Assembly: GCA_051294375.1 (NCBI GenBank)
Contig: JBJCIZ010000506.1
Span: forward strand, 1 to 31,197
Direction of reading: 5' to 3'
DNA length: 31,197 bases
From: Paraspadella gotoi
Taxonomy: Eukaryota; Animalia; Chaetognatha
The stretch's first letter is position 1, and the number at the start of each line of letters is the position of its first letter. The translations under genes were made by a program, and so were the position numbers. Shown piece after piece: positions 894 to 23,888 of the stretch. Below the pieces are notes generated by a model that had not been told where the DNA came from, searched no databases, and worked only from the letters and a program-made list of their open reading frames with translations.

Positions 894-900
894 GGAGAGG
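806..900. repeat. Imperfect (GA)n microsatellite
   Basis: Visible GA run; it explains the spurious RERERE/SLSLSL ORFs. Confidence 0.95.
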
Positions 901-1949
901 ACAATGCAAGTTATGAATAAAAATATATGAGCTAAATCTTTCTCACCATCTGTTTTCCTCAACTGCCAGAAGAATGGGAGAAAGAAAACAAAAAAGCAAT
1001 GGAGGAAAGGAAACCAACGGAGAAGGGGAAACACAACATGAAGGAAAAGAAACAATACGAATAGAGAAATTGAAATAAAAATCAGTGGAAGTAAGAAATC
1101 AAAAACTGACGACCCTGAAAATAAGACTCTGGCTAGTAAACACGGAGGTATGGTGAAGCGTATATATTGGAAAAAAACGAACACGAAAATAATAAAAATT
1201 ACAGCGGAGCAAAATAGGTCTTATCGAGAGGGAGAGAAAGTGGAAGTGAAACTAGAAATGGAAAAAATCTCGTGGCTGCGCCGAAGCCCCCGACTCGAAA
1301 AGGAGAAAGGAAGGAAATGGGAAGGGGGAAGAAAAGATCTTCGCGTCGCTCCTCCTCCTCACCGGCGACCCAATAAATTGCCCGAGAGGACAACACGCGC
1401 ACCGCGAATGGCCCGGGCTGTCCTCCGTGCACGTGCATGTGGTCCTAGGTGGAAAAAAAAACCTAACGGTGCATGGCGAGTGTGATGGCAAAGGTTGATA
1501 AAAAAAAAAAAACAAAAAATGGGGTGGGGAGGGGGGGGGGGGGGTAATTTCAAATAAGTCAAACGGTCATAACAGAGAGAAAATCAATTCATAGACAGTA
1601 GTACAATTATATGAATGGACTTTTGACAATACATAGACACGGGCTAAACTAGTAAAACATTTGAAATGTAAGGAAGCAAAACAAAGAAAAAAAAAACAAA
1701 AAAAAAAAACGAAAAATAGTATTTACAACAATAGGTGAGTGCTGTGTGAGTGCGAAGTTCCCATGCGCCATATATCCCCTATCACAGGCGTCCTCGTATT
1801 TGCTTTGATCGTTGATTTCAGGCGTAAATATTGGATTTTTTTGTTTTTGTTTTTTTTTGTGGCGAGACGACGCCGCGTCTCTTTTCTGCTTATTCGTAAT
1901 GGTTGATGCTTCCATGCGTTGCTCTCTTTTGTTTTCCATGGGCTTGTCA

Positions 1950-2790
1950 GGTTCGGAGTGGGACGGGCCGCGCTTATGTGCCTCGGGCGTCTGGGGAGGG
2001 AGAGCGCGCTGGGGTGCGCGTCCCGGAGTGCTTTCGTATTCGCGCGAACGGTGGTCGGGAGGGCGCCGGGAACTCAGTTGTTACGAGCCTGATCTCAGAC
2101 GTCCTCTAGCGCGGGGGAGGATCGCGTTCAAAGGATAATCAGAGTTGATATGCCAACGACCATCCTCAACGTCCGCCTTGTGGTGCTTTAAGCCAGGGCG
2201 TCCTAGCGGGGTCCTCGTATGTGTTTGGCGGGGTCTGTCGCAGCCTGTTGATTCCTTGAGGTACTTGTCGTAGTCCACAAATTTTGCAGATGGAGAATAC
2301 CAGTGCGCATTTGATCGGGGGGATTCCTCTCGAGAGGCTAGGGAAACGATGGTGATGGCCGAGGACGACGTAGAAATGACAGGTACGATTGTTAGCTTGG
2401 GCAGATCGACTCTATATTTTGTGGCGGCGCCTTCCCGAAAGACGTGGTCACTCTCGTCTCTCCATCTCCGATTAAGTCTGAAGGAACATGTCTCCGGGTT
2501 GAATAGGTCACTCGTTACATAATTTCGTGGAAATTCTCCTTTGGAAAAGGCCCTTCGGCGAGCGCCATTTAGCGCGTCCATCTGCGCCATAGGGCGGTTC
2601 TCCAGGTTTGTACCCGCCCTTCTCCTCAAACGTTCTTTTGTCGCCAGATTTCCAGTTGGTCGCGAGCCCATCCGTCTGCCGTAGGGGATGAGGATCCCGT
2701 CGTTGTTGTCGCGGAACTTTTGCTCGCCTGATGGCAGCCTGATCGAGCCGATTGCTCACGAGCAGTCGTCGTCGTCTTCGCCTGCACGGG
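1950..2790 (-). CDS. 'Gene L', copy 1: unknown protein, frameshifted in this assembly, possibly extending 5' toward ~3355
   Basis: GC-rich block. Peptide segments shared with copy 2 include LFNPET, LASREESPRSNA, YLKES, PGLKHHKADVE and LNAIL. No recognisable domain. Confidence 0.55.
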
Positions 2791-3360
2791 GTAGACGGGG
2801 TCCGTGGCACTTTATGATCACAACCTCGTCTTTCTACGACGACATGCTATCTCGTCGTGTGGGCTGAAGTCCTTGTATTTTGCCAATATGAGCCGTAGCC
2901 TGATAACCATGAGTGGCGTGTGGAGACTCTCCAAGTCCGCACAGCTGATGGGCGGTCTGGTTCGGGAGGTGTAGGAGCCGATGAGGTGGTGTACCGTTGC
3001 TGAGCATTGAAACCTCGTCCTGGGTCGTTGCAACTATGCCGACAAATCTCTGGAAGCAACGGGCGTTGGCTCCAGCAGGGAGAGAAAGGCGAGTAGGGCC
3101 GGGCCAGAGGCCCCGGCCCTCATACGATCCATTTTCTTTACTCGGGTGGGTGAGGGGGGTGAAGGTCCTATTTGGCTTCCCTTCTTGTTTGCGGTGGGGT
3201 TTTCTTCGATCTGCCAAGGGGGGGAGTAGAAGACCGATTAGTTGGCAACCATGGGCAACATCAATGAAATCGTGAAAACAATGGCAAATAATGTGAACAT
3301 GCAAATCGTAACAAAAATTCCCGATCGAAAGGGGAAGGCTTCGATTAGCTTCCAAATGAC

Positions 3361-3700
3361 ATGTTTTTATGTCTCTTACAACGGCGACGAATTTTAATCA
3401 TGTTTCCCGCTCTTTTTTTTAATTCGTGCGTTCTGTCAATCCTGGACCCGCTTGATTATCTCCCTAGCAACGGTGACGTGCTTATTCCGTTTCATGTTTT
3501 TAGACGTTTAACAACGTTTTTTTTGGTCTCGCTACAACGACGGCGATTTTTTTTATGTTTTCCCGCCCTTTTTCTTGATCCGCGCGTTCAGTCCAACCGG
3601 GTCGCGCGTTATATCTCCTAGCACGGTGACCTACTTATTCGTTCAATGTTTTTTAGAACGTTTAACAATGTCTTTTCGTCTCGTAGCCAACGGCGGTGGG
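3361..3700. promoter_or_regulatory. ~150 bp tandem repeat (about 2.3 units) with X-box (RFX)-like and E2F-like motifs; candidate bidirectional promoter/enhancer
   Basis: Unit elements recur: GTTTCCCGC (~3402, ~3558), ATCTCC(C)TAGCAAC (3458-3471, degenerate at ~3613), CTTATTC..ATGTTTT..ACGTTTAACAA. Lies between divergent genes L and R. The repeat is seen directly; the regulatory role is inferred. Confidence 0.6.
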
Positions 3701-4158
3701 CCTCGTAATCGCTTTTCTCGCTCATTGTTATACAAATTTATATCCTCGGTCAGGGGTGGCCCCCAGGCCCGCTGCGGGCACTCTTTTTTCATGAACAGCC
3801 TATAAAACGTATGTGTATTTTATCCTCGTGCTAATCAATCATCCGTCCAAGTAAAAAGTTACTCTAGGCTTGGGTTGTCGATGCGTTGCGCCTCCTCTTC
3901 ATCCAGCGGTAATCTTTCATCCTCTTTCGGCGGTAAAATATTTTCTCACATCGGCGGTGACTTTTGTTTCCTCTCCCCTCCGGGCGCAGTTCCTCGGGTC
4001 CTCGCCGATCGGTTTTCCTCTTCCTCTTCCTTCCTCCTCGTTGATTCTCAGAAAAGTTTCGAAGTCTCCGGGAGGGACTTTCACAAACCACGCTTGCCAG
4101 CTCCACTGCAAAAGACCTCCTTTTTTATTCGCTTTAAAAGAAAACTCGTTTCAAGAAA

Positions 4159-6237
4159 ATGGCGCAAAGATCTTCCATCTTCGATCGTTTAATTTCCATT
4201 CCCGGCGTCCTACGGTACTTGGACGAGATATTTCCGGTGCGCGTTGATGGCGTTCAATTTCGCGCCCCGATGCCCTCCACCCTTCAGCTACATTTGCTGA
4301 TGGGGAACTACTTGGGCGGATCCCGGATGACGGCGAGCCGCGCTTTTCAACAGTCGCGGTGGGCGACCGTCCGGGCGGCCGCTAACTCGCCTCCTCCTCC
4401 GAGTTTGGCGTCACGTATCCTCTATTTCGCTCCTTTTTTGTCGCGGCTCTCGGCTGGTGAGTACCCTCGTTTAGTTCCGCTTGTTTGGGGGGGAAGCCGG
4501 GGTTTTGTATTTAAAATCAGTCCTTTCTCGTTATCTATTCAGTTCCAATCGTCGGGCGGGCGCCTTTTACTCTCAGGGCCCGACCCTCTGCGTTTGGTCG
4601 ATCGCGCCGCTCCAAGCGGGCGCGGGAATATTTCAGCGGTCCGCCCGTTGGATCTCGGTCAGCCTGGAGGGCGGCGAAATGCCTGTCGAGGCCGTCCTTG
4701 CGGTGGCCCGCGGTCATGGCGGGTCTATTATGGCCAGGTTTCGACTTCCGGTGACGGGCTCTACCAGCCACCTGCCGCTGTAAGTATTTTTACATACATT
4801 TTTATGTCAAGTAGTTTCTTGCTCTGATTCGTGTCTTTCTTTAGTTCCGTTTTGTTTTCGCTGATATTATATTATCGCCATTCTTCCATTCTCTCAGTGT
4901 CCAAGTTTGGCCCGCACGACCAGCGCCGCTCGGCGATAGTGGATGCCTCCGCCGGGCACCTTGGCCGCTATCAGCTGCCGCGCAATCGTCCAGTGACGCC
5001 GCCGGTAAAGAACCTCGGTAGTTCTGTTTTTCTCCTGTTCTATCGTTCTCCTACGTTTATTTAATTTGTTCATTTATTTATTTATTTATTTATTCGTCTG
5101 TTAATTTCATCTACTTGTATCGTTTGTTTATTTTTGATCTACTCTTTTCTCTTTTTTTTTTTTCAGGACGCCGACCATGTCGTCGTCGGTCAAATTGGGC
5201 GTGGCGGCCAACTGCCTCTCGTAATACTCTCGTTATTCTTAGCTTTTTGTTTGTTTGTCTTTGACCGTCCATGTTTTCTTAGAAATGGTGGAATCGGATT
5301 AATTACTCATAGTGGTGCCTCGTTGTTTTCTCAGGCTCAGGCTGCGCCCTGACACGACGGCGTCCTCGACCACGGTGGGTTCCGCTGGGACCCCGCCAAG
5401 GCGTCCGCCGCCTCCGTGGCGCCCAGCGGGTCGTCTCAGGCCGCCTCGACCTCTGTTCCCGGCAGCCGGTGCCAGCTCTCAGTGATTCGGTGGCGAGTTC
5501 CGCGGCGCCCGCTCGTCCCTCCTCGCCCGGCGGGGAGTCGTCTGCGACTCGTCATCATCTTCCCCGGGGACTTCCGTCTCGTCGTCGTCTCCGAGGACGC
5601 CTCCCGCCGGCAAACGTCCATGGCGGCCTGTTTCACCCCTCGTCCGCGAGGAGGCCGTCGAGCCCAAATCAAAGAGGTCTCGCGATGGGAAAAGGCAGCG
5701 AAATCGTCTGGGTCGAAGCGGCGGTCTTCCAAGGCGAAGGCCGCTTCTCGAAAGTCGCCGAAGAAGTTCCCGTCGCTCACCAGTGGTTGCGCCTTGAGAC
5801 GGCGTCCACGCGCGGACCGGGTCCGGCGTCGTCAAAGCGATCGGATTCCTAAGAAGTCATCGAAAGCCGGCGCCGTCGGGGTGGCGTCACAGGTGGTGGA
5901 AATCGTCGGGAGGCGAGGCCGCTGGGGCCGGACCCAAGGCGGCGTCTGACTCGCCGGAGGAGAAAGGCGTTCGGGGTGGGAAGGCCCGGCGCTGTTCCGT
6001 CCCCCGCCGCCAACGCCAACACCGACGCCGACGCCAGCTCTAGCGCCACAGCAGTTATACTGCGGCCGAGGGCGCCTCGAGCGCGCCCGGGCGCTCGCGA
6101 GTTGGCGCCGTGTCCAAAATCAGGGGCAGTATACGACCCCGTGCCGCGTTGTCGGGTCAATAACTAATCCCCGCTGGTCATCATCAGGCGCCCACCCGTG
6201 GCGTTATCATGGCCGAAATTTTATCCCCGGTGTTTAG
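4159..6237 (+). CDS. 'Gene R', copy 1: five-exon gene, unknown N-terminal domain plus long basic K/R/S/A-rich low-complexity C-terminus
   Basis: ATG at 4159. GC-rich exons ~4159-4456, 4577-4779, 4898-5004, 5167-5220, 5335-6237, separated by T-rich introns. Donors are GTGAGT (4457), GTAAGT (4780), GTAAAG (5005; GTAAGA in copy 2) and GTAATA (5221; GTAAGT in copy 2), with polypyrimidine-CAG acceptors. Exact frame is uncertain because of indels. Confidence 0.7.
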
Positions 6238-6496
6238 ACTTAGTATTATATGTTCATTTTTAGATTCGTTGTGTTTGTTTATTTTTTTTTGTTCGCTTTT
6301 TTTTGCCTGTAAATATTCGTTCCTATTCATTTTGTTTACTCCGTTTTGCATGACCTAAATGTGTTTCGTAGTCATATATATAATCGATGTCTATATCAAT
6401 ATATTTTTGTATCTCGTAAAGGAAATCATATGTATTTGTTTTGATTCGATAAGAGAGAGACTTGTTTAGTTAAAATTGAAGAGTTTGTGTTAGACA

Positions 6497-6511
6497 GTTG
6501 CTCATGGCAAC
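6497..6511. promoter_or_regulatory. Near-perfect palindromic RFX X-box-like motif
   Basis: GTTGCTCATGGCAAC here and GTTGCCATGGGCAAC at 11464-11478 in copy 2; canonical X-box is GTTGCCATGGCAAC. Confidence 0.45.
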
Positions 6512-6989
6512 CGGAGGTGGTTTTTGATGTTTTTACATCAAATGGTTCAATCGAATGAAGTAGAAAAGGTCCTGCATCACGGGACGGAAATAGAACCCAT
6601 TTTCGGGCATCAGTAATAAGTTTTCGCAATTTTACTGCGTAAATAATTGATGCCTAATTAGATTTTTTTTTCGCTAGCGCGGCTAATGCAGAAGTCTTCA
6701 ACGTGCAACAAGTGGCCCATCTCGTCGTTCGTGAACTGGAAAGGACGTCCCGCTGTGCGAAGTAACGGGGGCGTGGTGAACGCGCGCGGGCCGATCCTCG
6801 TTTGCTGCAACGCGTTTCCAGGTGGCGTTGTATCATCTTGGGTCGTCGTAGCAGAAGCTCGCGTCGCTCTCCACTTACATCTTCGAGGCGTGGTTCACGC
6901 GTCGCAAATGCACGCGCTGCCACTAAGTAATGAACGGGGGCGTGAGGAGCACCGCGCAAAGGCCACGTGCTCGACACTTACATTTGAAA

Positions 6990-8401
6990 AAAAAAAGATC
7001 AGTTTTCTTCCGATTGAGGCGCTGCCGGCTGCGCGGAGCTTTTTCATAGTGCGTCTATGCACAACTCGAGGCTTGTTGCCGTCCATTGGTCCACTAAGAA
7101 GTCATCTCCCTCTTTTTTTTAGAATCGTGGCTATTTCATATTTCGGGCATAGTTTGTAACATTAAAGATTTAACTTTTGTTAGTTTTTCTTTTTCTACAA
7201 AATTTCTCCAAATAAGGACTTTTTCACCCGACGCCCAAACTCGGCGGTCATTCACGAGGATGAAGGCTTGGCGGCGTCTCCAGGTTTCTCTCTTTGCAAA
7301 ATTCTCTCAATCAATTCCTCAATGCGGATGTCTTTCCCATTTCCCTCTCAAATAGTCGCCGTCGGTTCCATCTGGCGCCTCCGCTTCCGGTCTCTCGGCG
7401 GTGGGCAGTTGTGGCTCTCTTCCATAAAAGAGGCGAAAGGGTGATGTCTGCAGGTCGTTGCTCATTCTCACCGGCGATATGTTGATGGCTCTGATGACTG
7501 ATTGCCAAGTGTCGATCCAGGGTTTCCCGCTCGGTTCCATGCGGCGGAGTAAATCGACGATGGTGGCGTTCATCTTCTCCGCCAGGTTCGAATTCTTCTG
7601 GGACGGCCGGAAATTGGCGGTGGAGAAGCCGAAGGACGTCTTCAGGCGTCCCATGACGCTGTTTACGAATTCTTTCCCTAGGTCCGTTGCTATTGTTTTT
7701 GTGGATAATTGATAAGAGTTGAAAATCGCCGCGATTGCGTCGGCGACCGTCTCGGCTGATTTATTCTTCAGCGCCGCCGCGAAGGCGTATCTGGAGGCGA
7801 CGTCGACGAGAACCAGGAGGTAGCGGAACCCTCGGATCTCCTCCAGCTGCAATAGGTCGGCGTGGAGCGTGCTGGCTATGGCTGAGTCGAATATTTTTAC
7901 TTTTCTTCCTTTTGCAAGCCTCGCCTTCTGGGCTAATCTGCAGTTTAGACATTGATGGAAAACTTTTTCGCAGACGGCCTTCAAGTTGAAGATGTAGCAG
8001 ACCCTGCTAATGGCGCACCGCAGTCGCGACGGGTTTGTGTGGGCGAGGTCTACGTGGACGTCTTTGACTACTTTTCCCGCCATTTTCGGCGGCACTATGA
8101 TGGATAAGTAAGTCGACCCGTCGTCATTAATTCCTTTATAATATAAGGTATTATGATTAATTTCTAGGTTATCTCTTATACTCATGATATGGTTCAAATA
8201 TTTGGATCGCACGCGCAGAACGTGTTCCTCCGGCGTCACGCCCATCTCGAGCGCCTCTATTGCTGCGAGCGTGTCCACGCATTTCTGCTGCGCCGCCGCT
8301 ATCTCTCCTTTGTTGACGTCGGCCTCGCCGCATGGCGGGGAGTTTTTCATCGTTTCGGCGATTGCGGCGTGGTTTTCTAGGATCTCGGTCGCCTGAATCA
8401 A
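6990..8401 (-). CDS. Retroviral-type integrase (HHCC zinc finger + rve DDE core + C-terminal extension)
   Basis: ORF 7319-8401 has HVDLAH...CLNC, then TLHAD, YLLVLVDVASRY, IATDLGKEF, NLAEKMNATI and SPFRLFYGREP. A frameshifted continuation gives GEKVLIW...KL and PRVVHRRTMKKL, resembling the GPY/F-type C-terminal module. Confidence 0.96.
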
Positions 8402-9003
8402 AAGCTGCGTGGATCGCCTCTTCGATCACTTCCGGTCTCGTGGCGTCTCCGTGGAACGCGCAGAGGCATCCAATGTCGTCCGCCTCTATTCGGTCTCTCT
8501 TCTTCTTCCACTTCGTTCTGGGTATTATGCTGTCGATCGGAGCACTTTGGTATTTTTTGACCAATTCTCCTCCCTCAGGGGACTTTGGTATTGTGATATC
8601 CAGATCGGGCTCCCCCTGGGGCAGAATTTTTGGGTTTTCGTCTGGGCAGGTTTTATCAGCTGGATTTAGTATTTTCGGGCATTTGTTGCCTATTTTGGGA
8701 ACTGGTTTTAGCTGGATCACCCCATCGGGATGTATTATTTGTACTGGGTGATTAGATGGCATTTTTATTGTTTGTAATCTGATAAGAATATCTTCTTGGT
8801 TATTGTGTTTCTGGTCCAAGGTTGGGGGGTTTAGAGCTAATTCCCCATTTGCGTGCGTTGGCTGTGGGTGTCTTGCATATACTTTGGTGTTGGCTGTTGT
8901 TGGGCCATTATTCGTTTTGTGCCTTGTAGTGGCTGTGGCGTCTCCAGTTCTCCCTATGCCTTTTCTTTCCTTTGGCTTGCTTTTCGGTCTGTATTTCTTC
9001 TCC
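8402..9003 (-). CDS. Long P/K/N/T-rich linker between RNase H and integrase
   Basis: Open frame KKKYRPKSKPKERKG...LDQKHNNQ...IEEAIHAAF joins the integrase ORF through a frameshift near 8400. Confidence 0.65.
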
Positions 9004-9379
9004 TAAGAATACAGAGAGGGGGTCTTCTTCCTCATTTTGTTGATATTCCACTACTCCCATAAGGTAGCACATTTGATCAGCTGCTCTGGTATCCTCTGCT
9101 GATGATCATTCTAGTGCTAATGGCATCTCGCTCTCCAGAATGCTTTGTTTAATTCTACAATTCTTCAGAGAAGTCATCTGTTAGTAAGATCATCCAGATG
9201 ATGTGGAGGTTTGTCATCTTCGCACGCCTTGAAGAGGTGTCTTCGGCCGGGTCATATAGAGACCTCTGGTTTGACGATCATCTTATGGTCCTATTAGTCG
9301 GCTGTGGTGATTTACACAGGATGGTGCGCGGAAACAAAAGAATTCTCCACTGTGCAGCATTGGGGTTGGCGTGGGCAGT

Positions 9380-9660
9380 GATGAGATCTGTGTCCTCGCC
9401 CAATTGTTGTGTACTGATGCCGAGTCTGTGACGACCAGGAATTTACGGAAACGGAGGAAAGAGTGACATTTGTTCCATTGCCTGGTAGAGTCCAACAGTT
9501 CTTTTCTGTTGATGTGGTATTTTGCTTGTTGTTGTGTAAACATGCGGGATCCGCATATACACACATCAGTTTTTTGTTCCTGAGGGTGAGAGGGCAGCTC
9601 CATAGCTGATTTCTGAAGCATCTGTGAAGAGTAGGAAGACACTCTTGTCAATATCCTCTT
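9380..9660 (-). CDS. RNase H domain of pol (frameshifted)
   Basis: VFLLFTDASEISYGAAL in one frame, then CICGSRMFTQQQAKYHINRKELL...FLVVTDSASV in ORF 9283-9651. The D..E..D catalytic residues are recognisable. Confidence 0.9.
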
Positions 9661-9899
9661 GGACTAATAAGTGGAGCCCATTAGTATTTGTTACTAAGTG
9701 TAACAGTTCCCTCAGGTGGATGATTATTTTCGGGGTTAGTTTGAACCTTGGTGATGCCTGCTTCTGCGTTCTAATTCTTCGTATAGCTTTTTTTGTTCGT
9801 TTGGCGAACCCTTGGCTAAAGGATTCTAAAAAAGCTCAAGGACTGGGCCAATTGTAAAACTTTTTTACGGCTGGTGGGTAGTGGCCTGGACGAGTAGTC

Positions 9900-10530
9900 T
9901 GAGAGTTTCTTTTTTCCCGGGAAGATTTTTCCTTCACGAAATTCATATCCCAAGAATTGAGAAGGCGCTATCAGTATCCTCTACGTTCATTGCTACGCAG
10001 GACCTCACCTGGCTTCAAGAGCAGGTTTTGGTGTTTGCAGCGTTCCAAGAAGACCCTAAATTGGGCAATGCTTTCTCCCACAGTTTTTGCTTTAAGCGAG
10101 AAATTGTCTGCATAGGACAGATAGGTTCCAATGGGGAAGCTGTCCCGAAAGGTCAGCTCAATGACTCGCGATGCTGTTGGGAAGGCCGGTGCAGCTCCCA
10201 TGGTGGTCCTTTGGAAGTTGTATGATTTCATGTCTGCACCGTAGATTGCCGTTATGCCTCTGCAGTTTGTGGAAAGTGGGATGTTGTAGAAAAAGTTGCT
10301 AAAATCAGCCGTCGTGAAATAGCATTCCTTTTCCATGAAGATCATCATTTCCCTCATGCTCACCAAATAGTTGGAAAAGGGTTTCATGGCCTTGCAGAGA
10401 TGGGCCTTCGGTCTGCCACTAATCGGAAGTTTTGCAGCTACCCTCATATCTGTGGCCTTCCTTAATTGGTCTAGTTAGACGATTTTACAGTTTTTCTTTT
10501 CAATGACGACGAGCATTTTGCCACTCCGTA
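9900..10530 (-). CDS. Reverse transcriptase domain with YADN motif (frameshifted)
   Basis: MLVVIEKK...LRKATDMR...FTTADFSNFFYNIPL...YNFQRTTMG...YLSYADNF...NLLLKP...FSILG align to the successive LTR-class RT motifs. Confidence 0.92.
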
Positions 10531-10861
10531 ACGAATGAATCTCGGATGGTTCCGCAGTCACATTCGCGACCCCGTGAGCGTGGGCGTGAGGTAATTGTCA
10601 ATGTAGCGGATCACATAACGCGGGCGGTCGCCGATAGGCGTTACCCTTGTGGAGAACACTCTGTTGGCTCTATACTCATGTGACAGGTAGCGCACCGCTC
10701 ATCACAAGTCTCGTCATAAGCTATATCCTATAGCACAATTCCCTGATTCCTGCTTCTGAGGATGCTGGAAGTTGTCCTGCCGCAAATAGATGTCGAGCGA
10801 AAATTTTCCCAAGCCAGATCTTCACATTGCTTTCGTCTTGTCTCCGGATGATAGGCCTTGC

Positions 10862-11168
10862 TTACTGCCTGAATTCCACTTCCAGAAACGCTGGTTTTCC
10901 TTTCTCGTCCCAGTATTGTTTCATGTCGTTCTGCACTTTAATGATAGCTTTCTCTATGTCTTCCTTGCTCATGTCGTCTCTATCAATGATAGAGGTAACT
11001 TTGGAGACTTTGGGTCTTTCTTTGTCCTCCTTCTCTCCAATTTGGTCCATTCTCTGAAGCAGCCACTCTGGAGCTGGTTCCCCTTCTTTTGGGCTGGTGT
11101 CATCCTCATCTTCTGAAGAGTCAAGCTCCCCTTCTTCTTTTTCGGTAGCCGGCATGCAGAAGGCCGAA
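10862..11168 (-). CDS. Acidic/helical polyprotein segment upstream of RT
   Basis: Open frame EKEEGELDSSEDEDD...SKEDIEKAIIKVQNDMKQYW on the pol strand, running into the gap. No protease D[TS]G motif seen. Confidence 0.55.
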
Positions 11169-11268: not shown

Positions 11269-12648
11269 CTTGTTGCACGTGAAGACTCCTGCATTAGCCG
11301 GCTAGCGAAAAAAAAATCTAATCAGCATCAATTATTTACGCAGAAAATTGCGAAAACTTATTACTATGCCCGAAAATGGGTTCTATTTCGTCCCGTGATG
11401 CAGGACCTTTTCTACTTCCTTCGATTGAACCATTTGATGCTAAAAACATCAAAACCACCTGCCGTTGCCATGGGCAACTGTCTACACAAACTCTTCAATT
11501 TACTAAACCGAGCTCTCTCTNNNNNNNNNNNNNNNNNNNNNNNNNNNNNNNNNNNNNNNNNNNNNNNNNNNNNNNNNNNNNNNNNNNNNNNNNNNNNNNN
11601 NNNNNNNNNNNNNNNNNNNNNNNNNNNNNNNNNNNNNNNNNNNNNNNNNNNNNNNNNNNNNNNNNNNNNNNNNNNNNNNNNNNNNNNNNNNNNNNNNNNN
11701 NNNNNNNNNNNNNNNNNNNNNNNNNNNNNNNNNNNNNNNNNNNNNNNNNNNNAACAAAATGAACAGGAACGAATATTTACAGGCAAAAAAAAAGTGAAAC
11801 AAAAAAATAACAAAAACACAACGAATCTAAAACAAATCTAAAAATGAACATATAATACTAAGGCTAACGCCGGGGATAAAATTTCCGGCCATGATAACCG
11901 CCGCGGGTGGGCGCCTGATGATGACACCGGGGGTTAGTTATTGACACGACAACGCGGCACGGGGTCGTATACTGCCCCTGATTAGGACACGGGCGCCAAC
12001 TCGCGAGCGCCCGGGCGGCGCTCGAGGCGCCCTCGGCCGCAGTATAACTGCTGGTGGCGCTAGAGCTGGCGTCGGCGTCGGCGTTGGCGTTGGCGGCGGG
12101 GGACCGGGAACAGCGCCGGGCCTTCCCACCCCGAACGCCTTTCTCCCTCGGCGAGTCAGACGCCGCCTTGGGTCCGGCCCCAGCGGCCTCGCCTCCCGAC
12201 GATTTCGCCACCTGTGACGCCACCCCGACGGCGCCGGCTTTCGATGCCTTCTTAGGGATCCGATCCTTTGACGACGCCGGACCCGGCCGCGCAGTGGACG
12301 CCGTCTCGGGCGCCACCACTGGTGAGCGACGGGACTTCTTCGACGACTTTCGAGAAGCGGCTTTCGCCTTGGAAGACCGCCGCTTCGACCCAGACGATTT
12401 CCCCGCCTTTTTCCCACCGCGAGACTTCTTTGATTTGGGTTCGACGGCCTCCTCGGCGGACGAGGGCGAAACAGGCCGCCNNNNNNNNNNNNNNNNNNNN
12501 NNNNNCAGCCGCCAATGGACGTTTGCGGCGGGCGACGTCCTCGGGAACGACGAAGGCGGAGTCCCCCGGGAAGATTTTGTGACGAGTCGCAGCGACTCCC
12601 CGCCGGCGAAGGAGAGCGCCGATCCACTGAGAGGCACGGGCCGACAGC
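11269..12648 (-). repeat. Copy 2, piece 1 (inverted copy of ~5460-6712)
   Basis: For example CTTGTTGCACGTGAAGAC at 11269 is the reverse complement of ~6694-6712, and the encoded peptides match. Confidence 0.95.
11864..12637 (-). CDS. Gene R copy 2, last exon (basic low-complexity region)
   Basis: 257-aa ORF with KSSGSKRRSSKAKAASRKSSKKSRRSP...TRGGYHGRKFYPRR*, homologous to 5460-6237. Confidence 0.7.
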   Translation of the reverse strand: MPLSGSALSFAGGESLRLVTKSSRGTPPSSFPRTSPAANVHWRLXXXXXXXXXRPVSPSSAEEAVEPKSKKSRGGKKAGKSSGSKRRSSKAKAASRKSSKKSRRSPVVAPETASTARPGPASSKDRIPKKASKAGAVGVASQVAKSSGGEAAGAGPKAASDSPREKGVRGGKARRCSRSPAANANADADASSSATSSYTAAEGASSAARALASWRPCPNQGQYTTPCRVVVSITNPRCHHQAPTRGGYHGRKFYPRR

Positions 12649-13223
12649 GACCTCACCACCACGACCACAAAAACGGTGGTCGACTCACTTTTAATGCTCC
12701 GAGGTCATCCTTAACATTCTTTCTAAGCATTCCTTTATATCTGTTTAAAATATGTGGATACCATATCGCAATAAAATTTATAAATAGAAGTTATATCGGT
12801 CTTTCTCTTTTACAGACGTAACACCTTTAAAACAAAACAAAAACAAACAACTTTATAAAAATTAAATAATTACCGCATAAAAAAAGAAGATAAAAAAAAT
12901 TAATATTTATGAGCATAGAGTTCCTAATTTACATATATAAACTCTTCACTGGAGTCTTTAAAACTTCCACTTAACGCCCCTTTTCCCTCAGGTCGATCAA
13001 ATCACGGATTTCGCGGACGACGACGACACGATTCTCTTTTTCATCCCGGATTGATGTGAGAGCGGTCGCGGCAAGTGTGGAGCGGACGTGGCGATGGATT
13101 CGCTCGAGAAGCGAGTGTCGCGCCGCGCGACGAAGCTGGTCGATTCTCAAAATCTGGAAGCTCGAAAGGTGCGCTGCCTTCGGGTCTGATGTTCTCGAGC
13201 GAAGTGGGTAAGAGACTCAGTCA

Positions 13224-13292
13224 GTCTCTCTTTTCTCTGCTCTCTACTCTCTCTCTCTCTCTCCTTCCTCTCTCTCTCTCTTCTCTCTCTCT
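13224..13292. repeat. Imperfect (CT)n microsatellite
   Basis: Directly visible. Confidence 0.9.
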
Positions 13293-15329
13293 TTCATTTC
13301 AATTTCCTTTGATTTCAGTGAAAAAGCGAGGATTGGAATCAATTGGGACGCCGACGACACGAATTCGAGTCGACGGATCCTGAACGGACGAAACAGTTAA
13401 CTTTGACTGGGTTAGTTAGGACGACCGGGTTGAAGGTCGGGTCCGTGATCCAAACTTATTCTACGACTCCCAATAGTGTTTTACTATGATCGGATACTAT
13501 GTTTGGCTGTTTGTACCTTACTTAACGAAGCCTATTTTAAATTTACACTTTCTTAACTGATCTAATGAAATGATAAGAAAATAAAACCGAATTGCGGTTA
13601 ATATGCCAAATTAGATTGAGGAAGCTCGATTTTTTTAAGTCTAAAATTTATTGTCGAGAATTAAATTTGATTTGGGGTAAGTCCTACGACATTAATTTTT
13701 TTTTTTAATTTTGTCTGTCATAAATACTGTAATTACGTGTAAGGGACCTTATGAAATGACAGAGAATTTATATTTTTTTATGAACAAATGCTGATTTTGG
13801 GGTAAGTACATAAGATACGAATAGTATACTCCCCCCATTTTCCGGCCCGATAGAGGCCACGCTCTCCGCCTTCGTCTCCTTCTCGACGCATGCACGTCGC
13901 GCCACGGCCCGACGACCCGCCTGCTGTACGCGCTGCTGCGCGATGTGAGGCTGGGGGTGGGGGGCAGTATCTTGGACCGTCGCTAAGCAACGGGCGAAAT
14001 CACGGCTCGTTTTCAGCTGTCGCTGATTTGCCGCGCCGGCGTCTTGTGGGGTGAGGGGAGAGGGGGTGGTATTAGAGTGGTGAGGTCTGAAGCGGTGCTT
14101 GTCTGGGTTGCTGTGGTTGGTGGTATTTAAATTGTTAAGGTAGTTTAATAATATATAACGACAACCAAAATTACCCAGTTCTTTGTTCGGGGGTTAAAAA
14201 AGTTAAAAAAAAAAAAAAAATAATATAACGATTAAAAGTCGATTTTTCTCGATCAAAATTTGACATTTTTGATGAAATTTAGTTACTTACACCCATTTGG
14301 AAAAGCGTGTTAAATATTTACCAACAAACAAATTTTTGGAGCGTCTTCGTGGGGAAAAGTTAGAACGCTGGTTAAAGACAAACACAACGCTTGACGAATG
14401 GGTTACCTTGGGTCGCATGAGTGACGCCGTAGCGAGGACCACTTAAACGCGCATTGGTGAACACCATTGCATCAGCCACCGTTTGGCAGCGTCCCGGATT
14501 AGTCGTGATTAGTGCGATCGGCCGATCAACGCCGACGCTTGCAATTGCTTGCCACGAGCGTGCTTGGAGATGTCTTGGGCCGCGCCGGGACCCCGCTTCA
14601 CTCAACATCGCTGCCCGCTCCGCCTCCCCGGAATCCCCTTTATTTTTTCGGTGGCGCGCGTTTCTCTCCTTTCTTTTCCTCTGGGTTTTTTTTCCTTCCT
14701 TCTGGGCCCCGCAGAATTGGTCCGTTCTTGGTCTCGGTTTGCAGTTCGTCCGATGCCCCCGGTTTGTTAATCACCGCCTGCCTTCCTTTCTCTCTCTCCA
14801 CTCGCACCGCACCTGCCCATTTATTGGTTGCCCGTGAACACGAGCTTGCGACGCCACATGGGGTGTAATACTCCGTGTTTCCTTGGTTACCTCCTGATTG
14901 TATCTGCTAATTTTTCTCTTCCGACCCGACCCTTCTTCATGTTGTCTGTTATTCCACATCTTTTTCGTTTCTTTCTTTCTGCTCCATCTCCTTTTTTTGT
15001 CATCTTTTCCCATGTCCTCTTTTTTCCATGCCTCTTCAGTGCTCCTTTCCCTGTCATTCCTTTCATCTATCTCTCAAGTTTTGCTCTCCTTTTTTTTTTA
15101 TTATTTCTTGTCTATATTTTTTTTTGCTAGATTACTGTTCCTTTTATATCGTATTTTCTTTTTTCGTCTTGTTTTTTTTCATCGGTTGATGAGGGAGAAG
15201 ATTCCGAAGTGATGATACTACATATTAAAAAAAATTATTATTAAAATCCAAAGTTAAAGCAGTCAATGTTGCCTTTCCTAACCAATTCCTGAAATCGCCT
15301 CTCGATTAAATCGAAATGATCAAGGGCCA

Positions 15330-16935
15330 TAACTTATTCGACAACACTCTTGAAGTTCGCCGCCAAAAAATCCGCAGAAGTCATTACGTAGTGGAATTGT
15401 TTGGAATGTCGGTGATTCCAACGTGATCCGACTGAGCGGTCGATAGAGGAGACTGAAGGAATGAAGCGGTGCAGCAGCAGAGAAACGTGTAAGCAAAATT
15501 AGGGAGGGAGGAAGAGAGTGAGATACAACGCAAAAGTGTAGGGTGGAGTAATGTTTGTCTAAAAAGTGCGGTGTAAAGGAGTGAATAAAATTTTTATTTA
15601 AGGAATCGATTCTAAATGCTCTAGGCAAAAGTATTGAGAAGATACTCGAGTTTACCTTCTTTCTAGAAAAAGTCATTGCGAAAACTCTGACACACTGAAT
15701 GAAAATTCCGGCGAAGTAAGATGAATCATCAACTCTTATTTTCATTCACAAAAGAATACATGAGTACAACGTGTTTTTAGAAATTTTATTGCTGGTTCTT
15801 TTGTTTATGTTTCTCAACAATGCCCTCCATGATTCACATTTCCAAATTTTTAATAGAGTTCCCTTCTGTCAAAATACCGTCTCTATTATAATGATGATAA
15901 TCAAAAATCATATATTATATTAAATGACATGGATAATTTTGTAACCAGGTCATGTGAGGATCCATAAGTAATCCAATCCATGAGTGAATCCTCGTGCAAA
16001 ATGTGTATTTTCTTATTATGAGAGCGATTTGCTGTTATTATGTGCTTAGGTATTTGAATCTATTGCATTCATTCCGATTTAAGTGAGTATTACCATCTGA
16101 TTTTTTAAATTTGACTTATTTTGTACATTTTCTCCCGTACTAAAACATCTCTCTTCCTCATTTGTTTTTTTCCGGTTTCGTCGGGGAAAACGAAAACGAT
16201 GTCTTTTTTTTTTTTATCAGAGGTTTTCGCCAGGAGTGCGTGTGCTGTGTGCGGGTCAATTTGACACTTGGTTAGATGGCGCCGGGTCGGCGGCGCGACG
16301 GCCCAGTCGAAATGACGCTTAATCCGCGGTGGCATGGAGACGGAAACAATGCGGTCGCAATAAAGGAACATAACAGCGTGAACACCTAAGCTGAATTGGG
16401 TAAGGTATTTATAAATGATGGAAGGGTAGGAAGACGCCAAAAATAAGTGTACACCGCATAAGAAATTGTTATGATTTACCTAAATAATGAAGTTAAATGG
16501 TTGAAGACTGAATGTGAGGTTTGGAGTGAAAGGTTGTATATAACCTTAAAGAAGTTTTTAATTATATCAAATTATCTGACTTACACCTTATAGATATCGA
16601 GAATAGAAATTCTTTTGTAATTATCGATGCTAAAACTTGACTTCGTGAGTCCAACAAACAAATCCTTCAATGCTTGCCAGATCTGCGACGAATGCTTGAG
16701 AATAAGTGTCCAGTAAACAAGAGTGGTATCAACGCGGCCAAGCGAGATTAAAAAGGTCGAATATGGTCAGATCCATCACGAATGTCTAAGAAGCAGCCGA
16801 CGTCGAGGGTGATTCCTCATACGGCGCCGCCCGTTCGTCGCCAGAACGCCCGTTCGATTCATTCCGCGCATCACGGGAATTAATGCAGTTCGCTATCGAT
16901 TCCGAGATCTGTCGACCTTTCTGACGCTTCGTCAT
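15330..16935 (-). CDS. Possible multi-exon gene of unknown function inside the 7.8 kb segment
   Basis: Protein-like pieces on the minus strand: ISLGRVDTTLVYWTLILKHSSQIWQALKDLFVGLTKSSFSIDNYKRISILDIYK followed by a GTAAGT near 16583, a short candidate exon ~16480-16544, and ORF parts 16105-16385 and 15656-15745 (ending AAG|GTAAAC). No domain recognised. Confidence 0.3.
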
Positions 16936-17592
16936 TTCAAAGAAATATTATATTACATTTTTTCGAACCCGCTGTTCAAAACGACGTACGATCGCACCCG
17001 ACAAGACAAATGTAGGTTCTGTTTCGACAATATAATCCACCGACTGATTAGAGATTTAACTCAGTATACGGCGAACTGATCGTTTGAGCGTTTTTGGCTT
17101 CGCTCCAAATTGTTGCGAAAGCGAAGAAAAGATGAACGGATATAAAAAACACATAGTGTTTATCGCGAATTAAATGGCATCAGATTGTCTTTTGCTTTTT
17201 CCAATAAAAATTTTATTTATTATTGTTTTCTAATTTTTTTTAAGTATATTAACCTTTGTTGATTGGCAATATGATTTATAGTCCTTTGACATTATGAGTA
17301 TCCTCATTTATATTATTCCCCCTTTATCAGATTCAAGACGAACCTCAGCTGCGATCATTAGCTCCACTTTGATCCTTCCTTCACTTTTTCCCCCATCCAT
17401 CATCCCTCACCGGCGTCTGCTAAAAACTCATTATTCGCGACGAAGGAATTCGAATGGCGCCTGCTTTGTTTAGGATGAAGAATTGTATAGATCTATAGAT
17501 TTGCCGAATGTAAGATTATCATTCATAGAATATTTCTCTCTCACGATCCCATGCGGCCTGTTACGATTATGTATCTGGGCGGAGCGAGCATG

Positions 17593-17593
17593 A

Positions 17594-17624
<31 letters not shown>

Positions 17625-17626
17625 CG

Positions 17627-17670
<44 letters not shown>
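17593..17670. repeat. Imperfect (CT)n microsatellite
   Basis: Directly visible. Confidence 0.95.
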
Positions 17671-17675
<5 letters not shown>

Positions 17676-20041
17676 CACTCTAAAGCAGAGTGCCCTGGCC
17701 TCTTTGCATTGATCTTCTTTGAATCGATTCCGCCATAATTTTCTTCATTTTTCCGTTTTATTCGTCTGCGAGACTTTCAGAGAAAAATGGAATCATCCTA
17801 AACTCGGATCTTGCAATTCGTCTGACTCCAAATGGGGCTTCTCGAAATGATCGAGGATGGCTCTCTGTCGTCATCTCTCTCTACAGCCCTGCTTCGGCTT
17901 CTCTGCTTCTGCAGTCTCTCATTCGCTTGTCATGCTTCTGCTCTCCTTCTTAAATTTATTTTTTCCGGCTCTCTCTGTCTCTCTTTTATTTAATTCTATT
18001 GTTCTTTTTACTTAAAATTATATGTCATATATGAACTATTTCCGAAAAATCAATTATATTCGTCGTCTATACTTAAACTAGTTTTGAGTGTCAGTTTCCA
18101 TGAATTATTAACTAAGAGAATATACGTGTTGAATCCAATTTGGCCATAGCCTGATGCAAACATAAGTTTGAAGAGAATGAACAAAGCGGTAAAAGAAAGC
18201 AGAAGAATCGAGGTAGAAAAACAAGGAAAAGGAGAGAAAGGGGGTCGAGATAGGAGTGAAGCGGTAGCGTCTTTTTGAATGACAGTCTTATGTTTGTCAC
18301 TCCATATTCAAGTCAGAGTTAAAGAATAATTAAAGAGAGGAGGAGAAGAGGAGAGTGAGGAGAAGAGGATGATAGCGAGGAAGTGCGGATGTTTTAATAT
18401 TTGGTTGTATTTTTTTGAAATTTATGAGAAAGAGAGGATAGAGAATGCAAGAGGATAGTGTTAAACTTCATAGAGCCTCTGTAGAGAAAGCGTTTGTCTG
18501 GGATGGTGAAAAGAAATGGAACAATGGAAGAGAAAAACTTTAAATCATGGAGAAAGAAAGGGAAATCCAAGGAAATAAGAGGCCAGGAAGAATAAAGGAA
18601 CAGGAGATGGAGAAAAATAAAGAAATTGAGTTATGTACACTCGGAAGTAAATGATATGATACAAGAAAAAAAGTATCTCCAGAACTTGTGAAAAATGCAA
18701 ATCCTCGAGACGTAGATTTTATCCGTTATACGCATAAAGAAATCTTAGGATAGAAATAAATGGCGAGGGAGAAAATAAAGTCTAGTCGAACTAAGAAAAG
18801 ATAAAAGAAAAAAGAAGAAGAAGGACGAGATAGTGTCAGAAAATCAGAATTGCTGGACAAAGAGTGAACTAACAAAATTAACTAATTTTCTTTCGAAATA
18901 AACGTTGTAGGTTTTGACTACTTTTGGTATATTGAGAAATCTTTAATTCTAAGCTTTGCTTTCCTTTTCGCGTGAAGCCCGAATCGTCTTTCGATTGATG
19001 ACAAATCGTTCGTCGTGAACTTCAAACGTTCCCTCGTACTCCTCCTCTTCAACATGATCCATGCGTGAATTTATCCGTCCGCCACATTTTTTTTCTCTCC
19101 GAAAATTTTTTTGCGGAAAATTCAACAGAAATATAGAGCAAAAAATTTCCAAGAGATTTATTTAAACAAGAGTCTATATATTTTTTTCTTAGTGCTAAAT
19201 TATAATTGTAGACATCTCAATCGATTTCTCCCGTTAATTCACATGTGCTCGATTCGCTCGCTCACAATACCCATCTTAAATATATTATTTTAGTCTAATA
19301 ATCATCCATAGATTCATCCTTCGCCTCATCCCCTTTGCCTTTCCTCGCTAATGTACCGTTACTTCCAACGACCACCCGATCATGCACCCAATACGCCGCA
19401 TCCACGCGCAGAAATCCGCGAGCGAGCGTCGACGTAAACATTTATTTCGGTTCTTGTTTCTTATCTACTTCTTAAGTTCTTCATTCATAATAATTTATAT
19501 CCACGGCGGCCGTTCTTCGCTTCCCGCTCTTCCGCGTCTCCCTTCTTCTCTTTCCGCCACCCCTCCTTCGTTCCCCTCGGCAACGCATCTCTTTTCCAAA
19601 AAATTACATGCTGTTTCCGATATTGCCCTCCTCTTTGCCAGTAATTCCCGAGATTGGTTCTCGTTCCCTGTAGTACACGTCTCCGTTTTGTTCTTCTTTC
19701 CCTCTCCTTTTCCTCCCTCTTCTCTTTTAGTTTGTCCTGCATTTTCATTCTCATCAAGTCCTTACATCATCAACTCTCCTTCACGCCTGACTTTGTCTCT
19801 TTCCACTATACTCTCTTTTGCTTTCTATCGTTCCCTTTCTTTCTCCCTCTTTTCTCATATGCCCTTTTTACTCCTATCCATTCTTCTCTTACTCATCCTC
19901 TCACATCCCTTCTTTTTCTATACTAATCCCCATTTTCTCCTTTCCCTCGTGCCTTTTCTTAGTTTCCTATTCACGTCTGTGTGCATTCTTTTTACATCCA
20001 CTTGTCCGTAAATGTCTCCATCCCGAGCCTTTTTTCATGTT

Positions 20042-20137
20042 CTGCCCATTCCCGACTTCCTAGTCTCCCATCCCGACTTCCCACGTCTCCCATCCCAACT
20101 TTCACTCTCCCATCCCGACTTCCTATCTCCCATCCGT
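20042..20137. repeat. Minisatellite, ~21-22 bp unit CTCCCATCCCGACTTCC(N4-5), about 5 copies
   Basis: Repeated ctcccatccc(g/a)act core. Confidence 0.85.
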
Positions 20138-20525
20138 GCTTTCTCGTCCTGATCCTTGTATCGTCTCCCTCTTCTTCTCTCACATCATCTCTTTTTTTTC
20201 CTCTCTTCTCCTCGACTTTCTTATTCATCCCGAATCTCCTATGTTTTTTCGCTTTTGCTCCCGTCGCCGCTCGCTGCTTCTCAATCCCGGACCGTTACCT
20301 CCTAATTTCACGCCATAAGTCACTTCTCTTGTCTGTTCTACGGCCACTAGTTTGCCCTTACTATGTGTTACGTTTGGTGAGATACCACAAGAGTCACACG
20401 TAAAACTTAAAGAATAAGTTAAAATCTTACGAGACACTATGAGAATAATCTCGATTCCACCATTTCTAAGAAAATAGACGGTCAAAGACAAAACAAACAA
20501 AAAGCTAAGAACAACGAGTACTTAC

Positions 20526-21584: not shown

Positions 21585-22019
21585 TTTCTTGAAGCGAGTT
21601 TTCTTTTAAAGCAATAAAAAAAGGTCTTTGCAGTAGAGCTGGCAAGCGTGGTTGTGAAAGTCCCTCCCGGAGACTTCGAAACTTTTCTGAGAATCAACGA
21701 GGAGAAGGAAGAGGAAGAGGAAAATCGATTGGCGAGGACCCGAGGAACTGCGCCCGGAGGGGAGAGGAAACAAAAGTCACCGCCGAGTGAGAAATATTTA
21801 CCGCCGAAAGAGGATGAAATATACCGCTGGATGAAGAGGAGGCGCAACGCATCGACAACCCAAGCCTAGAGTAACTTTTACTGGACGGATGATTGATAGT
21901 CGAGGATAAAATACATATGTTATAGGACTGTTCATGAAAAAGAATGCCCGAGCGGCCGGAGCCACCCCTGACCGAGATATAAATTTGTATAACATGAGCG
22001 AGAAAAGGATTATGAGCCC

Positions 22020-22350
22020 ACCGCCGTTGCTACGAGACGAAAAACATTGTTAAACGTCTAAAACATGAAACGAATAAGTAGGTCCCCGTTGCTAGGAGAT
22101 AATCGAGCGCGACCACGGTGGACTGACGCGCGGATCAAAAAAAGGGCGGGAAACGTAAAAAATCGCCGTCGTTGCTACGAGACCAAAAAAAAAAAACCTT
22201 GTTAAACGTCTAAAACATGAAACGAATAAGCACGTCACCGTTGCTAGGAGATAATCAAGCGGTCCAGGATTGACAGACGCACGAATAAAAAAAAAGAGCG
22301 GGAAACATGATTAAAAATTGTCGCGCGTTGCTAAGAGACTAATAAACATG
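22020..22350. promoter_or_regulatory. Copy 2 of the ~150 bp X-box/E2F tandem repeat
   Basis: GTTGCTACGAGAC (22026, 22171), GTTGCTAGGAGAT (22088, 22240), GTTGCTAAGAGAC (22327); GCGGGAAA (22146, 22298). Confidence 0.6.

Positions 22351-23850: not shown

Positions 23851-23888
<38 letters not shown>
23851..23888. repeat. (CT)n microsatellite
   Basis: Directly visible. Confidence 0.95.

Follow-up and report, generated by a model that had tools for sequence, protein, structure and literature searches.

A predicted multi-intron gene in the chaetognath Paraspadella gotoi lies next to, and antisense to, a divergent pol gene, and the two probably belong to one LTR-type retrotransposon of at least 15 kb, which carries pol, the antisense gene (R) and a further gene in pol sense (L). 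The window, the whole stretch of DNA analysed (31,197 nt of contig JBJCIZ010000506.1), likely covers two-thirds, on the 3' side, of a single element that is young and present in several copies. Its features, including a second copy (copy 2), are:

1116-1500, no strand: end of the element and candidate for the 3' LTR, with an approximate inner limit
1733-3256, minus: L, GC-rich coding-like block in pol sense, estimated at ~400 aa
3377-3676, no strand: tandem repeat, period 156 bp, 1.9 copies
4052-4456, plus: predicted R exon 1, ATG at 4159, ~100 aa predicted to be helical
4543-4779, plus: predicted R exon 2
4898-5004, plus: predicted R exon 3
5167-5220, plus: predicted R exon 4
5335-6216, plus: predicted R exon 5, a basic tail rich in Ser/Ala/Lys/Arg with NLS-like clusters
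6626-7002, no strand: variable spacer between R and pol, flanked by a 7-nt direct repeat
7020-8377, minus: integrase with H2C2 zinc finger, DDE core and a C-terminal domain
8378-9417, minus: long low-complexity tether from RNase H to integrase, a trait of the clade
9418-10555, minus: RT with a YADN motif, plus connection and a Ty3-type RNase H
10880-11168, minus: pre-RT part of pol, cut by an assembly gap (iE 5e-8)
11269-12614, minus: piece of copy 2 matching 5519-6712
20435-22434, minus: piece of copy 2 matching 3268-5314
24016-25626, minus: piece of copy 2 matching 1113-2773, with its own flank

The order first read from the letters alone (minus-strand pol, convergent R, tandem repeat and L, with nothing missing between them) is confirmed by the sequence of 1113-11168, which is free of gaps, and by short-read contigs from public runs, which fill 30/30 bins in three of four runs and 28 in the fourth, X1. 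The minus-strand pol encodes RT, RNase H, a long tether and integrase, and its 3' end lies at about 7020-7040. A Pfam domain search found H2C2 and rve (E 1.6e-10) at 7322-8425, RT_RNaseH at 9286-9663 and a weak match to RVT_1, below the Pfam cut-off, at 9974-10474, all on the minus strand. The extent of the integrase C-terminus is indicated by residues 341-380 of P0006, which align with 7158-7039. One contig (X2 record 12) covers 7559-11106, so RT and integrase form a single unit, and in another (X1 record 6, 7676 nt, of which only the first 2521 nt map to the window) pol runs at least 5.1 kb further upstream. RT, RNase H and DDE integrase thus occur together in one pol, as in LTR retrotransposons, in the order RT-RH-IN; a protease lies upstream in 4/4 full-length relatives, giving the PR-RT-RH-IN order of Ty3/gypsy.

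The sequence-only reading was right to see a retroelement pol, although its unusual lineage had gone unnoticed. In trees made with FastTree, the window falls into a clade with 19 unnamed proteins (integrase, 130 rows, support 0.999) or with seven (RT, 37 rows, support 0.988). The RT tree, rooted at its midpoint and free of named references, sets the clade apart from 29 unnamed YxDD RTs. All eight clade RTs carry [YWL][AI]DN; that of the window reads YADN, the YxDD catalytic motif of Ty3/gypsy being absent. The spacing from RNase H to integrase is ~495 aa in the window, 543-786 aa in 6/6 scored members of the clade and 172-278 aa in 20/22 proteins outside it. Searched against PDB, the clade profile finds its nearest solved structure in Ty3 Gag-Pol (E 8e-41). 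Like Ty3/gypsy elements (Metaviridae, yeast Ty3), the group has an H2C2 plus rve integrase, a Ty3-type RNase H and, in the relatives, the domain order given above; unlike them, it has a YxDN-type motif, polyproteins of ~2200-2300 aa, an RH-IN spacing of 500-800 aa and no Pfam gag domain in the relatives' polyproteins, and it stands as a clade on a long stem, apart from the ordinary gypsy-like matches. By these trees, pol falls within a well-supported group of unnamed metagenomic polyproteins, which is likely a divergent, Ty3/gypsy-like clade and is apparently undescribed; no published description of an Asn-motif clade was found in the literature searched.

A word-based protein search gave only three weak matches for the integrase, and none for RT among proteins of 294-2000 aa. 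Viral contigs scanned with the integrase, P0019 and three clade alignments gave no match, nor did a metagenome scan with the window integrase; with a clade alignment, the metagenome scan yielded one locus of 1316 nt, too short to reveal cargo.

In Ty1, the change of Asp to Asn at the same site abolishes transposition (PMC2148107, in the part available). The RT nonetheless likely works with YADN, because the Asn runs through the clade as a whole and the family shows signs of recent amplification. With ~20 unnamed proteins, the clade offers natural enzymes on which to test how far the second aspartate of YXDD is needed, and it points to a lineage of repeats that receives low scores in standard annotation, as RVT_1 did here. 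Kuafuorterviruses/Troyka are likewise a neglected lineage of animal LTR elements with an altered YXDD, but their motif is IADD, VADD or LADD and they are mostly 5-6 kb in length, whereas the present element has YADN and takes up 10 kb or more of the window (PMC11673190). YADN, WADN and LADN occur 0 times in the 282,042 supplement characters searched (PMC11673190).

R had been proposed as a convergent, plus-strand gene of five exons, and the predicted intron layout agrees with a two-state composition HMM that knows nothing of splice motifs. Its T-rich blocks (4503-4550, 4779-4909, 5019-5164, 5222-5332) coincide with the four predicted introns (4457-4542, 4780-4897, 5005-5166 and 5221-5334; 86, 118, 162 and 114 nt), all of the form GT..CAG. 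No T-rich, intron-like break lies inside L, in keeping with the earlier view that L has no evident introns. The predicted introns recur in copy 2, where 4/4 R donors read GTRAG and none does so on the opposite strand; four of four was reached in 0/20000 composition-preserving shuffles. In copy 1, GTRAG stands at only 2/4 donors. The predicted introns lie on one strand only, strictly antisense to pol. A candidate acceptor ends at 4051, upstream of exon 1, and the sequence suggests a further exon on that side.

The DNA runs also contain a diverged R-like subfamily, in which islands are retained over exon 1, over acceptor 1, over exon 3 plus donor 3 and where intron 3 ends (3' side), and whose joints are 4083 to 4274, 4305 to 4526, 4572 to 4912 and 5006 to 5118. 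None of the 15 listed contig joints matches a predicted intron, and introns 2 and 3 are read through in contigs of X9, the sole run guessed to be RNA; none of the listed runs is on record as RNA, which says nothing about expression. The X9 joints inside R were rejected as splice junctions: none fits an intron, and 2/4 are also present in DNA runs.

Many 1-nt indels break all reading frames, so the ORF lengths given for R and L are estimates. In copy 2, exon 5 is a 204-aa ORF with 21% K+R, 17% S, 18% A and 5% D+E. No homologue of R or L was found by protein, structure, Pfam, ESM atlas or viral-contig searches. For R exon 1, a word-based search of proteins of 173-2000 aa gave no relatives (weak evidence), the ESM atlas gave nothing above 0.83 and the viral contigs gave no match; pieces of R had no match in Pfam, TRP28 (PF04195) included, at a sensitivity lowered by the broken frames. 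L, its frames also broken, had no match in Pfam or PDB; a part of it gave no usable match in the atlas, and a piece of it none in the viral contigs. Single-sequence AlphaFold models were poor (pLDDT 55 for R exon 1, 64 for L), with no Foldseek E under 0.001 and best VIA Z of 6.2 and 4.7, respectively; structural matches of R to matrix proteins (Z 4.3-4.5) are not significant. By analogy and composition, the R protein would most likely be a nuclear, nucleic-acid-binding regulator of element expression or an anti-silencing factor.

L was read earlier as a second, divergent gene in pol sense. The coding-like block is confirmed, but it may not be a divergent gene driven by a separate promoter: position 3211 is a good splice acceptor in pol sense, which suggests a subgenomic gene in env position. 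L has a weak WW-like hairpin near its N-terminal third, a helical, coiled-coil-like middle and no clear membrane anchor. Compared with env-bearing gypsy elements (errantivirus-like), which have a sense ORF3 marked by a signal peptide, fusion-protein homology and a TM anchor, it has the position and the acceptor but no Pfam match or clear TM, and its frames are broken.

The two copies align from 1113 and 25626, and the flanks beyond are unrelated. The candidate end at 1116 reads TG on the plus strand, so it is CA-ended in pol sense, and the bin 1243-1585 is ~2-6 times deeper than pol in the four runs. The window holds one element end, the other end, the PBS region and the place of a gag upstream of pol lying beyond the gap; no LTR pair, PPT, PBS or TSD was seen in it, in line with the earlier remark that no LTR pair or TSD is visible. 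Beside the candidate LTR, whose limit is uncertain, no purine tract of at least 11 lies next to 1500 in pol sense. The cargo is indeed multi-copy, with its second copy in the window as claimed, but that copy is not intact: it is inverted and in three pieces, with N gaps and stretches of unrelated DNA (~7.8 kb and 1.6 kb) between them, and it stops at 6712 only because the contig ends at a gap. Substitutions between the copies amount to 0-6% per region and 1-3% in long regions. No tRNA or Rfam match was found. A CpG-rich style shared by cargo and integrase, offered earlier as a link between them, was rejected as a sign of common origin: the flanks (1-1000 and 13-24 kb) are mostly like it, with CpG o/e of 1.0-1.7, and pol is heterogeneous, at 0.3-0.7 in its RT-RNase H-tether part.

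Linkage was assessed in four public runs (X1, X2, X4 and X9, one of which may be the source sample), with joints from all four and from three studies. Contig depth is not copy number and there is no single-copy baseline, but median depths of L, the 5' half of R (R-5') and pol are similar in three runs (109/86/90 in X1, 108/110/110 in X2 and 1510/1376/1315 in X4), and contigs in 4/4 runs join the 3' end of pol to the R side. These depths and joints, together with the pol sequence at least 5 kb upstream, make a single element the best reading. The claim that R and L are parts of one element of >10 kb is supported further by their multiple copies and shared sharp end; set against it are the lack of the terminal features named above, the lack of a pol-to-L record among the records listed, the L/R depth of 8-11 in X9 (2-3 times the pol depth of 3.3) and a segment, 6731-7416, that is ~2-5 times deeper than pol in all four runs; a simple model with one element leaves these last two depths unexplained. 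The description of the element as giant holds on the traditional scale of >10 kb, given an inferred length of at least 15 kb, but not on the >20 kb scale in the available part of PMC6431247.

The excess at 6731-7416 might instead mean that R and L make up a repeat distinct from the retrotransposon, either a DNA transposon or a non-autonomous unit, whose gene contains introns, and that a short LTR at ~6630-7000 closes the retrotransposon, the two having been joined once and co-amplified. This is unlikely. A short purine run followed by C-TG does lie just after the integrase end, near 7003, there is no PPT at the far end, and introns are usual in DNA-transposon accessory genes, to go by the accessible part of PMC12477816 (Sola1-1_Ec32). 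However, the excess depth reaches into the integrase coding sequence, and no transposase, TIR or Helitron-type end was seen in 1113-6712. Moreover, an abundant variant without 6626-7002 (joints 6607 to 7008 and 6607 to 6999 in 4/4 runs, recorded without side lengths or kind) keeps pol joined to the R side, which would be odd for an LTR.

A segmental duplication of host genes, R and L, with a retrotransposon insertion inside it is very improbable. The R introns are of the ordinary spliceosomal kind and the gapped scaffold may join haplotypes or loci, but both copies end at one sharp TG/CA boundary with unrelated flanks, depth at the end far exceeds that of the body, structural variants and the diverged subfamily occur in DNA runs, and longer proteins yielded no relative for R exon 1 (a weak point).

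Ogre-like elements have multi-kb LTRs, and one might place R and L inside a single LTR of ~6 kb that starts near 7100, where a 16-nt purine tract directly precedes TG (7120-7104, pol sense). Copy 2 holds only the part that would be LTR, and the X9 depths point the same way. Yet this tract codes for part of the integrase and aligns there with P0006, and the depth of L and R-5' equals that of pol in X1, X2 and X4; such an arrangement is most improbable. That the juxtaposition is an artefact of assembling error-rich long reads is scarcely credible, despite the 1-nt indels and the scaffolding of inverted copy 2 across N gaps, since 1113-11168 has no gap and is tiled by short-read contigs that include the pol-to-R-side joints.

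If pol, R and L are taken as one LTR element, its nearest parallels include plants' Retand/Tat Ty3/gypsy elements, in which antisense ORFs (aORFs) are known: maize Grande, rice RIRE2 and Silene Retand (PMC7264820; PMC11963269, as far as available). Shared with these are a long region between pol and the 3' LTR (2.9-6.6 kb there, ~5.5 kb here), an antisense gene, an internal tandem repeat and a predicted nuclear or DNA-binding product; unlike them, the P. gotoi element has no TRP28/Transposase_28 match, a pol of a different clade with YADN and an animal host. In the text available, the Retand paper uses the word "intron" 0 times, and the review calls for a search for spliced antisense transcripts (PMC7264820, PMC11963269). 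Accessory genes after pol are also found in the large bdelloid Vesta/Juno/TelKA (ORF3), Oikopleura Tor (env) and planarian Burro elements, spliced or from internal promoters; in the available parts of these sources, the extra ORFs are in pol sense or within the polyprotein and have recognisable domains, and none is a multi-intron antisense gene like R (PMC5408684, PMC4402516, PMC6431247). HTLV-1 HBZ and BLV provide a spliced antisense gene in a reverse-transcribed genome, downstream of pol and expressed from the 3' end (PMC1459196, accessible part). R is likewise antisense, predicted to be spliced and downstream of pol. HBZ has one intron per isoform and comes from the 3' LTR. Unlike it, R has four or five predicted introns, no bZIP and no sequence link, and HTLV-1 is a vertebrate deltaretrovirus with env. 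Antisense ORFs (plants) and spliced antisense genes (HTLV-1) are known, but the literature searched gave no multi-intron antisense gene in such a lineage.

Retrotransposons are expected to lose introns, but by established logic introns antisense to the genomic RNA survive reverse transcription. The full-length genomic RNA would be made in pol sense, and on it the R introns would read CT..AC and be invisible to the spliceosome, hence surviving reverse transcription; the strand asymmetry is observed, the retention we infer. R would be transcribed in the opposite direction, starting either at an internal promoter close to the tandem repeat or, like HTLV-1 HBZ, in a terminal repeat, and spliced to encode a protein of ~500 aa whose head is helical and whose tail is basic and rich in Ser. 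L would be made from a subgenomic RNA via the acceptor at 3211 and, with no clear membrane anchor, would more likely be a protein-interaction accessory factor. A more tentative proposal, possible but somewhat doubtful as a whole, is an undescribed, deep lineage of animal LTR elements whose RT functions by nature with Asn in place of the second aspartate of YXDD, and whose genome, in this host, is ambisense and like that of a complex retrovirus, with an antisense regulator of five or six exons (its transcription possibly beginning in the 3' LTR, its first intron then enclosing L and the tandem repeat) and an accessory gene in env position. If it lies inside a retrotransposon, the four-intron R would show the antisense strand to be a working refuge for host-style spliced genes. 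R would offer a direct test, four junctions on one strand, of the idea that the plant aORF review left open; gene finders would label it a host orphan gene.

X1 is nearly without cover over 5359-6730. The tandem repeat is about one unit shorter in contigs of X1 and X2 (joint 3521 to 3726).

The element is real and unusual, and it is probably a single LTR-type retroelement that carries an antisense cargo gene whose splicing is predicted. Its pol lies on the minus strand, as the sequence-only reading had claimed and as matches to protein families confirm:

7322-8425, minus strand: integrase (Pfam rve, E 1.6e-10; H2C2, E 2e-5)
9286-9663, minus strand: RNase H (Pfam)
9974-10474, minus strand: reverse transcriptase (RT; Pfam RVT_1, E 2.6e-4, under the cut-off)

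The C-terminus of the integrase extends to about 7020-7040. The scaffold is eukaryotic and error-rich, with 4 N gaps. Its short GT-AG introns, its AG microsatellites, and a repeat with a GGAC microsatellite (~26.6-27.2 kb) may resemble those of arthropod genomes. A contig from public run X1 (record 5), compared over 998 nt with the integrase in the window, shows 12 gaps and no other differing letter. Since the comparison with short-read contigs gives gaps and no substitutions, the broken frames seem to come mostly from read errors, not from decay. The tether, RNase H, and RT (8450-10200) have a CpG o/e of 0.3-0.7, lower than the 1.1-1.5 of the integrase (7000-8450) in the same pol, possibly through old recombination between subfamilies. 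Despite their unlike CpG content, integrase and RT are tied into one unit, because a contig from run X2 (record 12) covers both (7559-11106).

When 1.84 billion proteins were scanned with HMMER, matches to the integrase numbered 8707, the best at 158 bits and the bulk near 70. In a tree built from the 129 of the best 150 of these matches that cover enough of the domain, the window and 19 relatives form a clade (support 0.999). An RT tree with 37 rows places the window in a clade with 7 relatives (support 0.988); both are midpoint-rooted FastTree trees from which named references are absent. Every RT of the latter clade carries the motif [YWL][AI]DN. Four full-length relatives (2174-2306 aa) comprise protease, RT, RNase H, a long tether, and integrase, with no gag match in Pfam. 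A profile of seven relatives aligns to 11032-7385 of the window, and its first PDB match is Ty3 Gag-Pol. Ten relative clusters examined, from ENA, JGI, or Logan, bear no informative name; one sits on contigs up to 17.7 kb. After the protease, relatives P0010, P0011, P0013, and P0019 share a conserved beta-rich stretch of ~130 aa, which to the eye recalls a degenerate dUTPase-like sequence; in P0013 and P0019 it has no Pfam match at E 10.

R, the predicted five-exon gene on the plus strand (4052-6216), was foreseen from the sequence, and its four predicted introns (86, 118, 162, and 114 nt, each GT..CAG) agree with that claim; a motif-blind composition HMM recovers them both in the copy beside pol (copy 1, 1113-6712) and in the second copy (copy 2, in pieces within 11269-25626). 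Donors in copy 2 read GTRAG in 4/4 cases, a pattern matched by 0/20000 shuffles, and none does so on the opposite strand; in copy 1 the count is 2/4. A pyrimidine test (12 of 15) is passed by 4/4 acceptors of copy 1 and by 2/3 of those present in copy 2, where the fourth is missing. L, the pol-sense coding-like block (1733-3256), has no intron-like blocks by the same HMM, in agreement with the earlier claim that it lacked evident introns; it has a pol-sense acceptor at 3211. Its codon-position GC (0.56/0.45/0.71 and 0.70/0.46/0.73) is like that of the integrase (0.52/0.40/0.66).

Sequence, profile, and structure searches gave neither a homologue nor a confident fold for R or L. The R product is predicted to combine a helical head (~100 aa) with a basic tail rich in Ser and Ala, so a nuclear nucleic-acid-binding protein would fit. 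Among the best Foldseek rows for a small hairpin in L are many WW domains, aligned across 24-27 columns at an rmsd of 1.0-1.6, with a nonsignificant E of about 1-2.

That R and L are accessory genes of one element of >10 kb, as had been proposed, stands in part. Contigs of 4 public runs (one organism, 3 studies) were aligned to 900-11168. Median depths over L, the 5' half of R, and pol, which are run depths and not copy numbers, are alike in X1 (109/86/90), X2 (108/110/110), and X4 (1510/1376/1315); X9 (8/11/3.3) counts against the proposal. The 3' half of R has depths of 2.8, 67, 1021, and 10 in X1, X2, X4, and X9. Bin 1243-1585 is ~2-6x deeper than pol, as expected of an LTR with solo copies, but 6731-7416 is also ~2-5x deeper, and this too weighs against a single element. 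In its favor, 4/4 runs contain a joint that links 6607 with 7008 or 6999, representing a variant without the R-pol spacer, the absent part lying between 7-nt direct repeats; a second subfamily therefore also appears to have the end of pol joined to the R side. The spacer contains an exact 12-nt repeat (6764-6775 and 6933-6944), and a diverged subfamily in X1 also aligns up to 6791. X1 record 6 runs ~5.1 kb past the assembly gap, which puts the unit at 15 kb or more provided that it extends to the sharp end at 1116. Both copies share that end (TG on the plus strand, CA in pol sense), followed by three common C's and then unrelated flanks, which also favors one element. Against one element, a purine-tract scan found no PPT beside it and, as before, neither an LTR pair nor a TSD was seen in the window.

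A rarer joint, 1519 to 4015, in X1 and X2 (depth 9-11) retains a plus-strand donor near 1495, clean in copy 2 only, and an acceptor at 4051, only a hint that R, with a first intron enclosing L, begins in the terminal segment. Directly after this candidate donor, both copies have on the plus strand an A-tract and then a G-rich tract (1500-1545), which could be a G-quadruplex or an intronic enhancer.

To the observed anatomy, intron strand asymmetry, repetition, and clade membership a mechanism may be joined. The predicted introns of R would survive copying owing to its antisense orientation relative to the genomic RNA; its product may be a nuclear regulator, and that of L an env-position accessory protein. 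The YADN enzyme may be active, since the Asn is clade-wide and the Kuafu supplement (available part of PMC11673190) has YIDN in two HEART rows. Against this counts Ty1 D211N, which kept polymerase activity in vitro and lost transposition (available part of PMC2148107).

In the available parts of the papers cited, plant Grande, RIRE2, and Retand carry tandem repeats and ORFs of antisense orientation downstream of pol (PMC7264820, PMC11963269); HBZ of HTLV-1 is spliced and antisense, starting in the 3' LTR (PMC1459196); extra ORFs in sense orientation occur in rotifer, Oikopleura, and planarian elements (PMC5408684, PMC4402516, PMC6431247); and DNA transposons carry accessory genes (PMC12477816). 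Kuafuorterviruses are unlike the window element in motif and size (PMC11673190). Word search of the available parts of PMC13524379 and PMC3118150 gave nothing relevant. By title and start of abstract, in a literature with subscription papers, Repbase, and bioRxiv supplements mostly outside its scope, we found no description of a YADN retrotransposon lineage or, for LTR retrotransposons of animals, of an antisense gene with several introns; such a family could stand recorded in those sources.

The second cargo copy claimed for the window is present but not intact, being inverted and split into three pieces. It differs from copy 1 by 0-6% substitutions per region and many 1-nt gaps. At the border of intron 4 and exon 5, ~7.8 kb of unrelated microsatellite-rich DNA (12650-20430) stands in place of ~130-200 nt; the ORFs scanned there gave no Pfam match above cut-off. 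The DNA that interrupts the copy includes, at 23537-23741, a tandem repeat with a 106-bp unit, present in 1.9 copies with 89% matches. At 30001-30123, a pyrimidine-rich acceptor precedes the opening of a frame with a motif that we take to be homeobox-helix-3-like, although Pfam gave no homeobox match there. Finally, 26576-27200 holds three related 90-nt units and a GGAC microsatellite, presumably resembling the short repeats associated with insect Helentrons.
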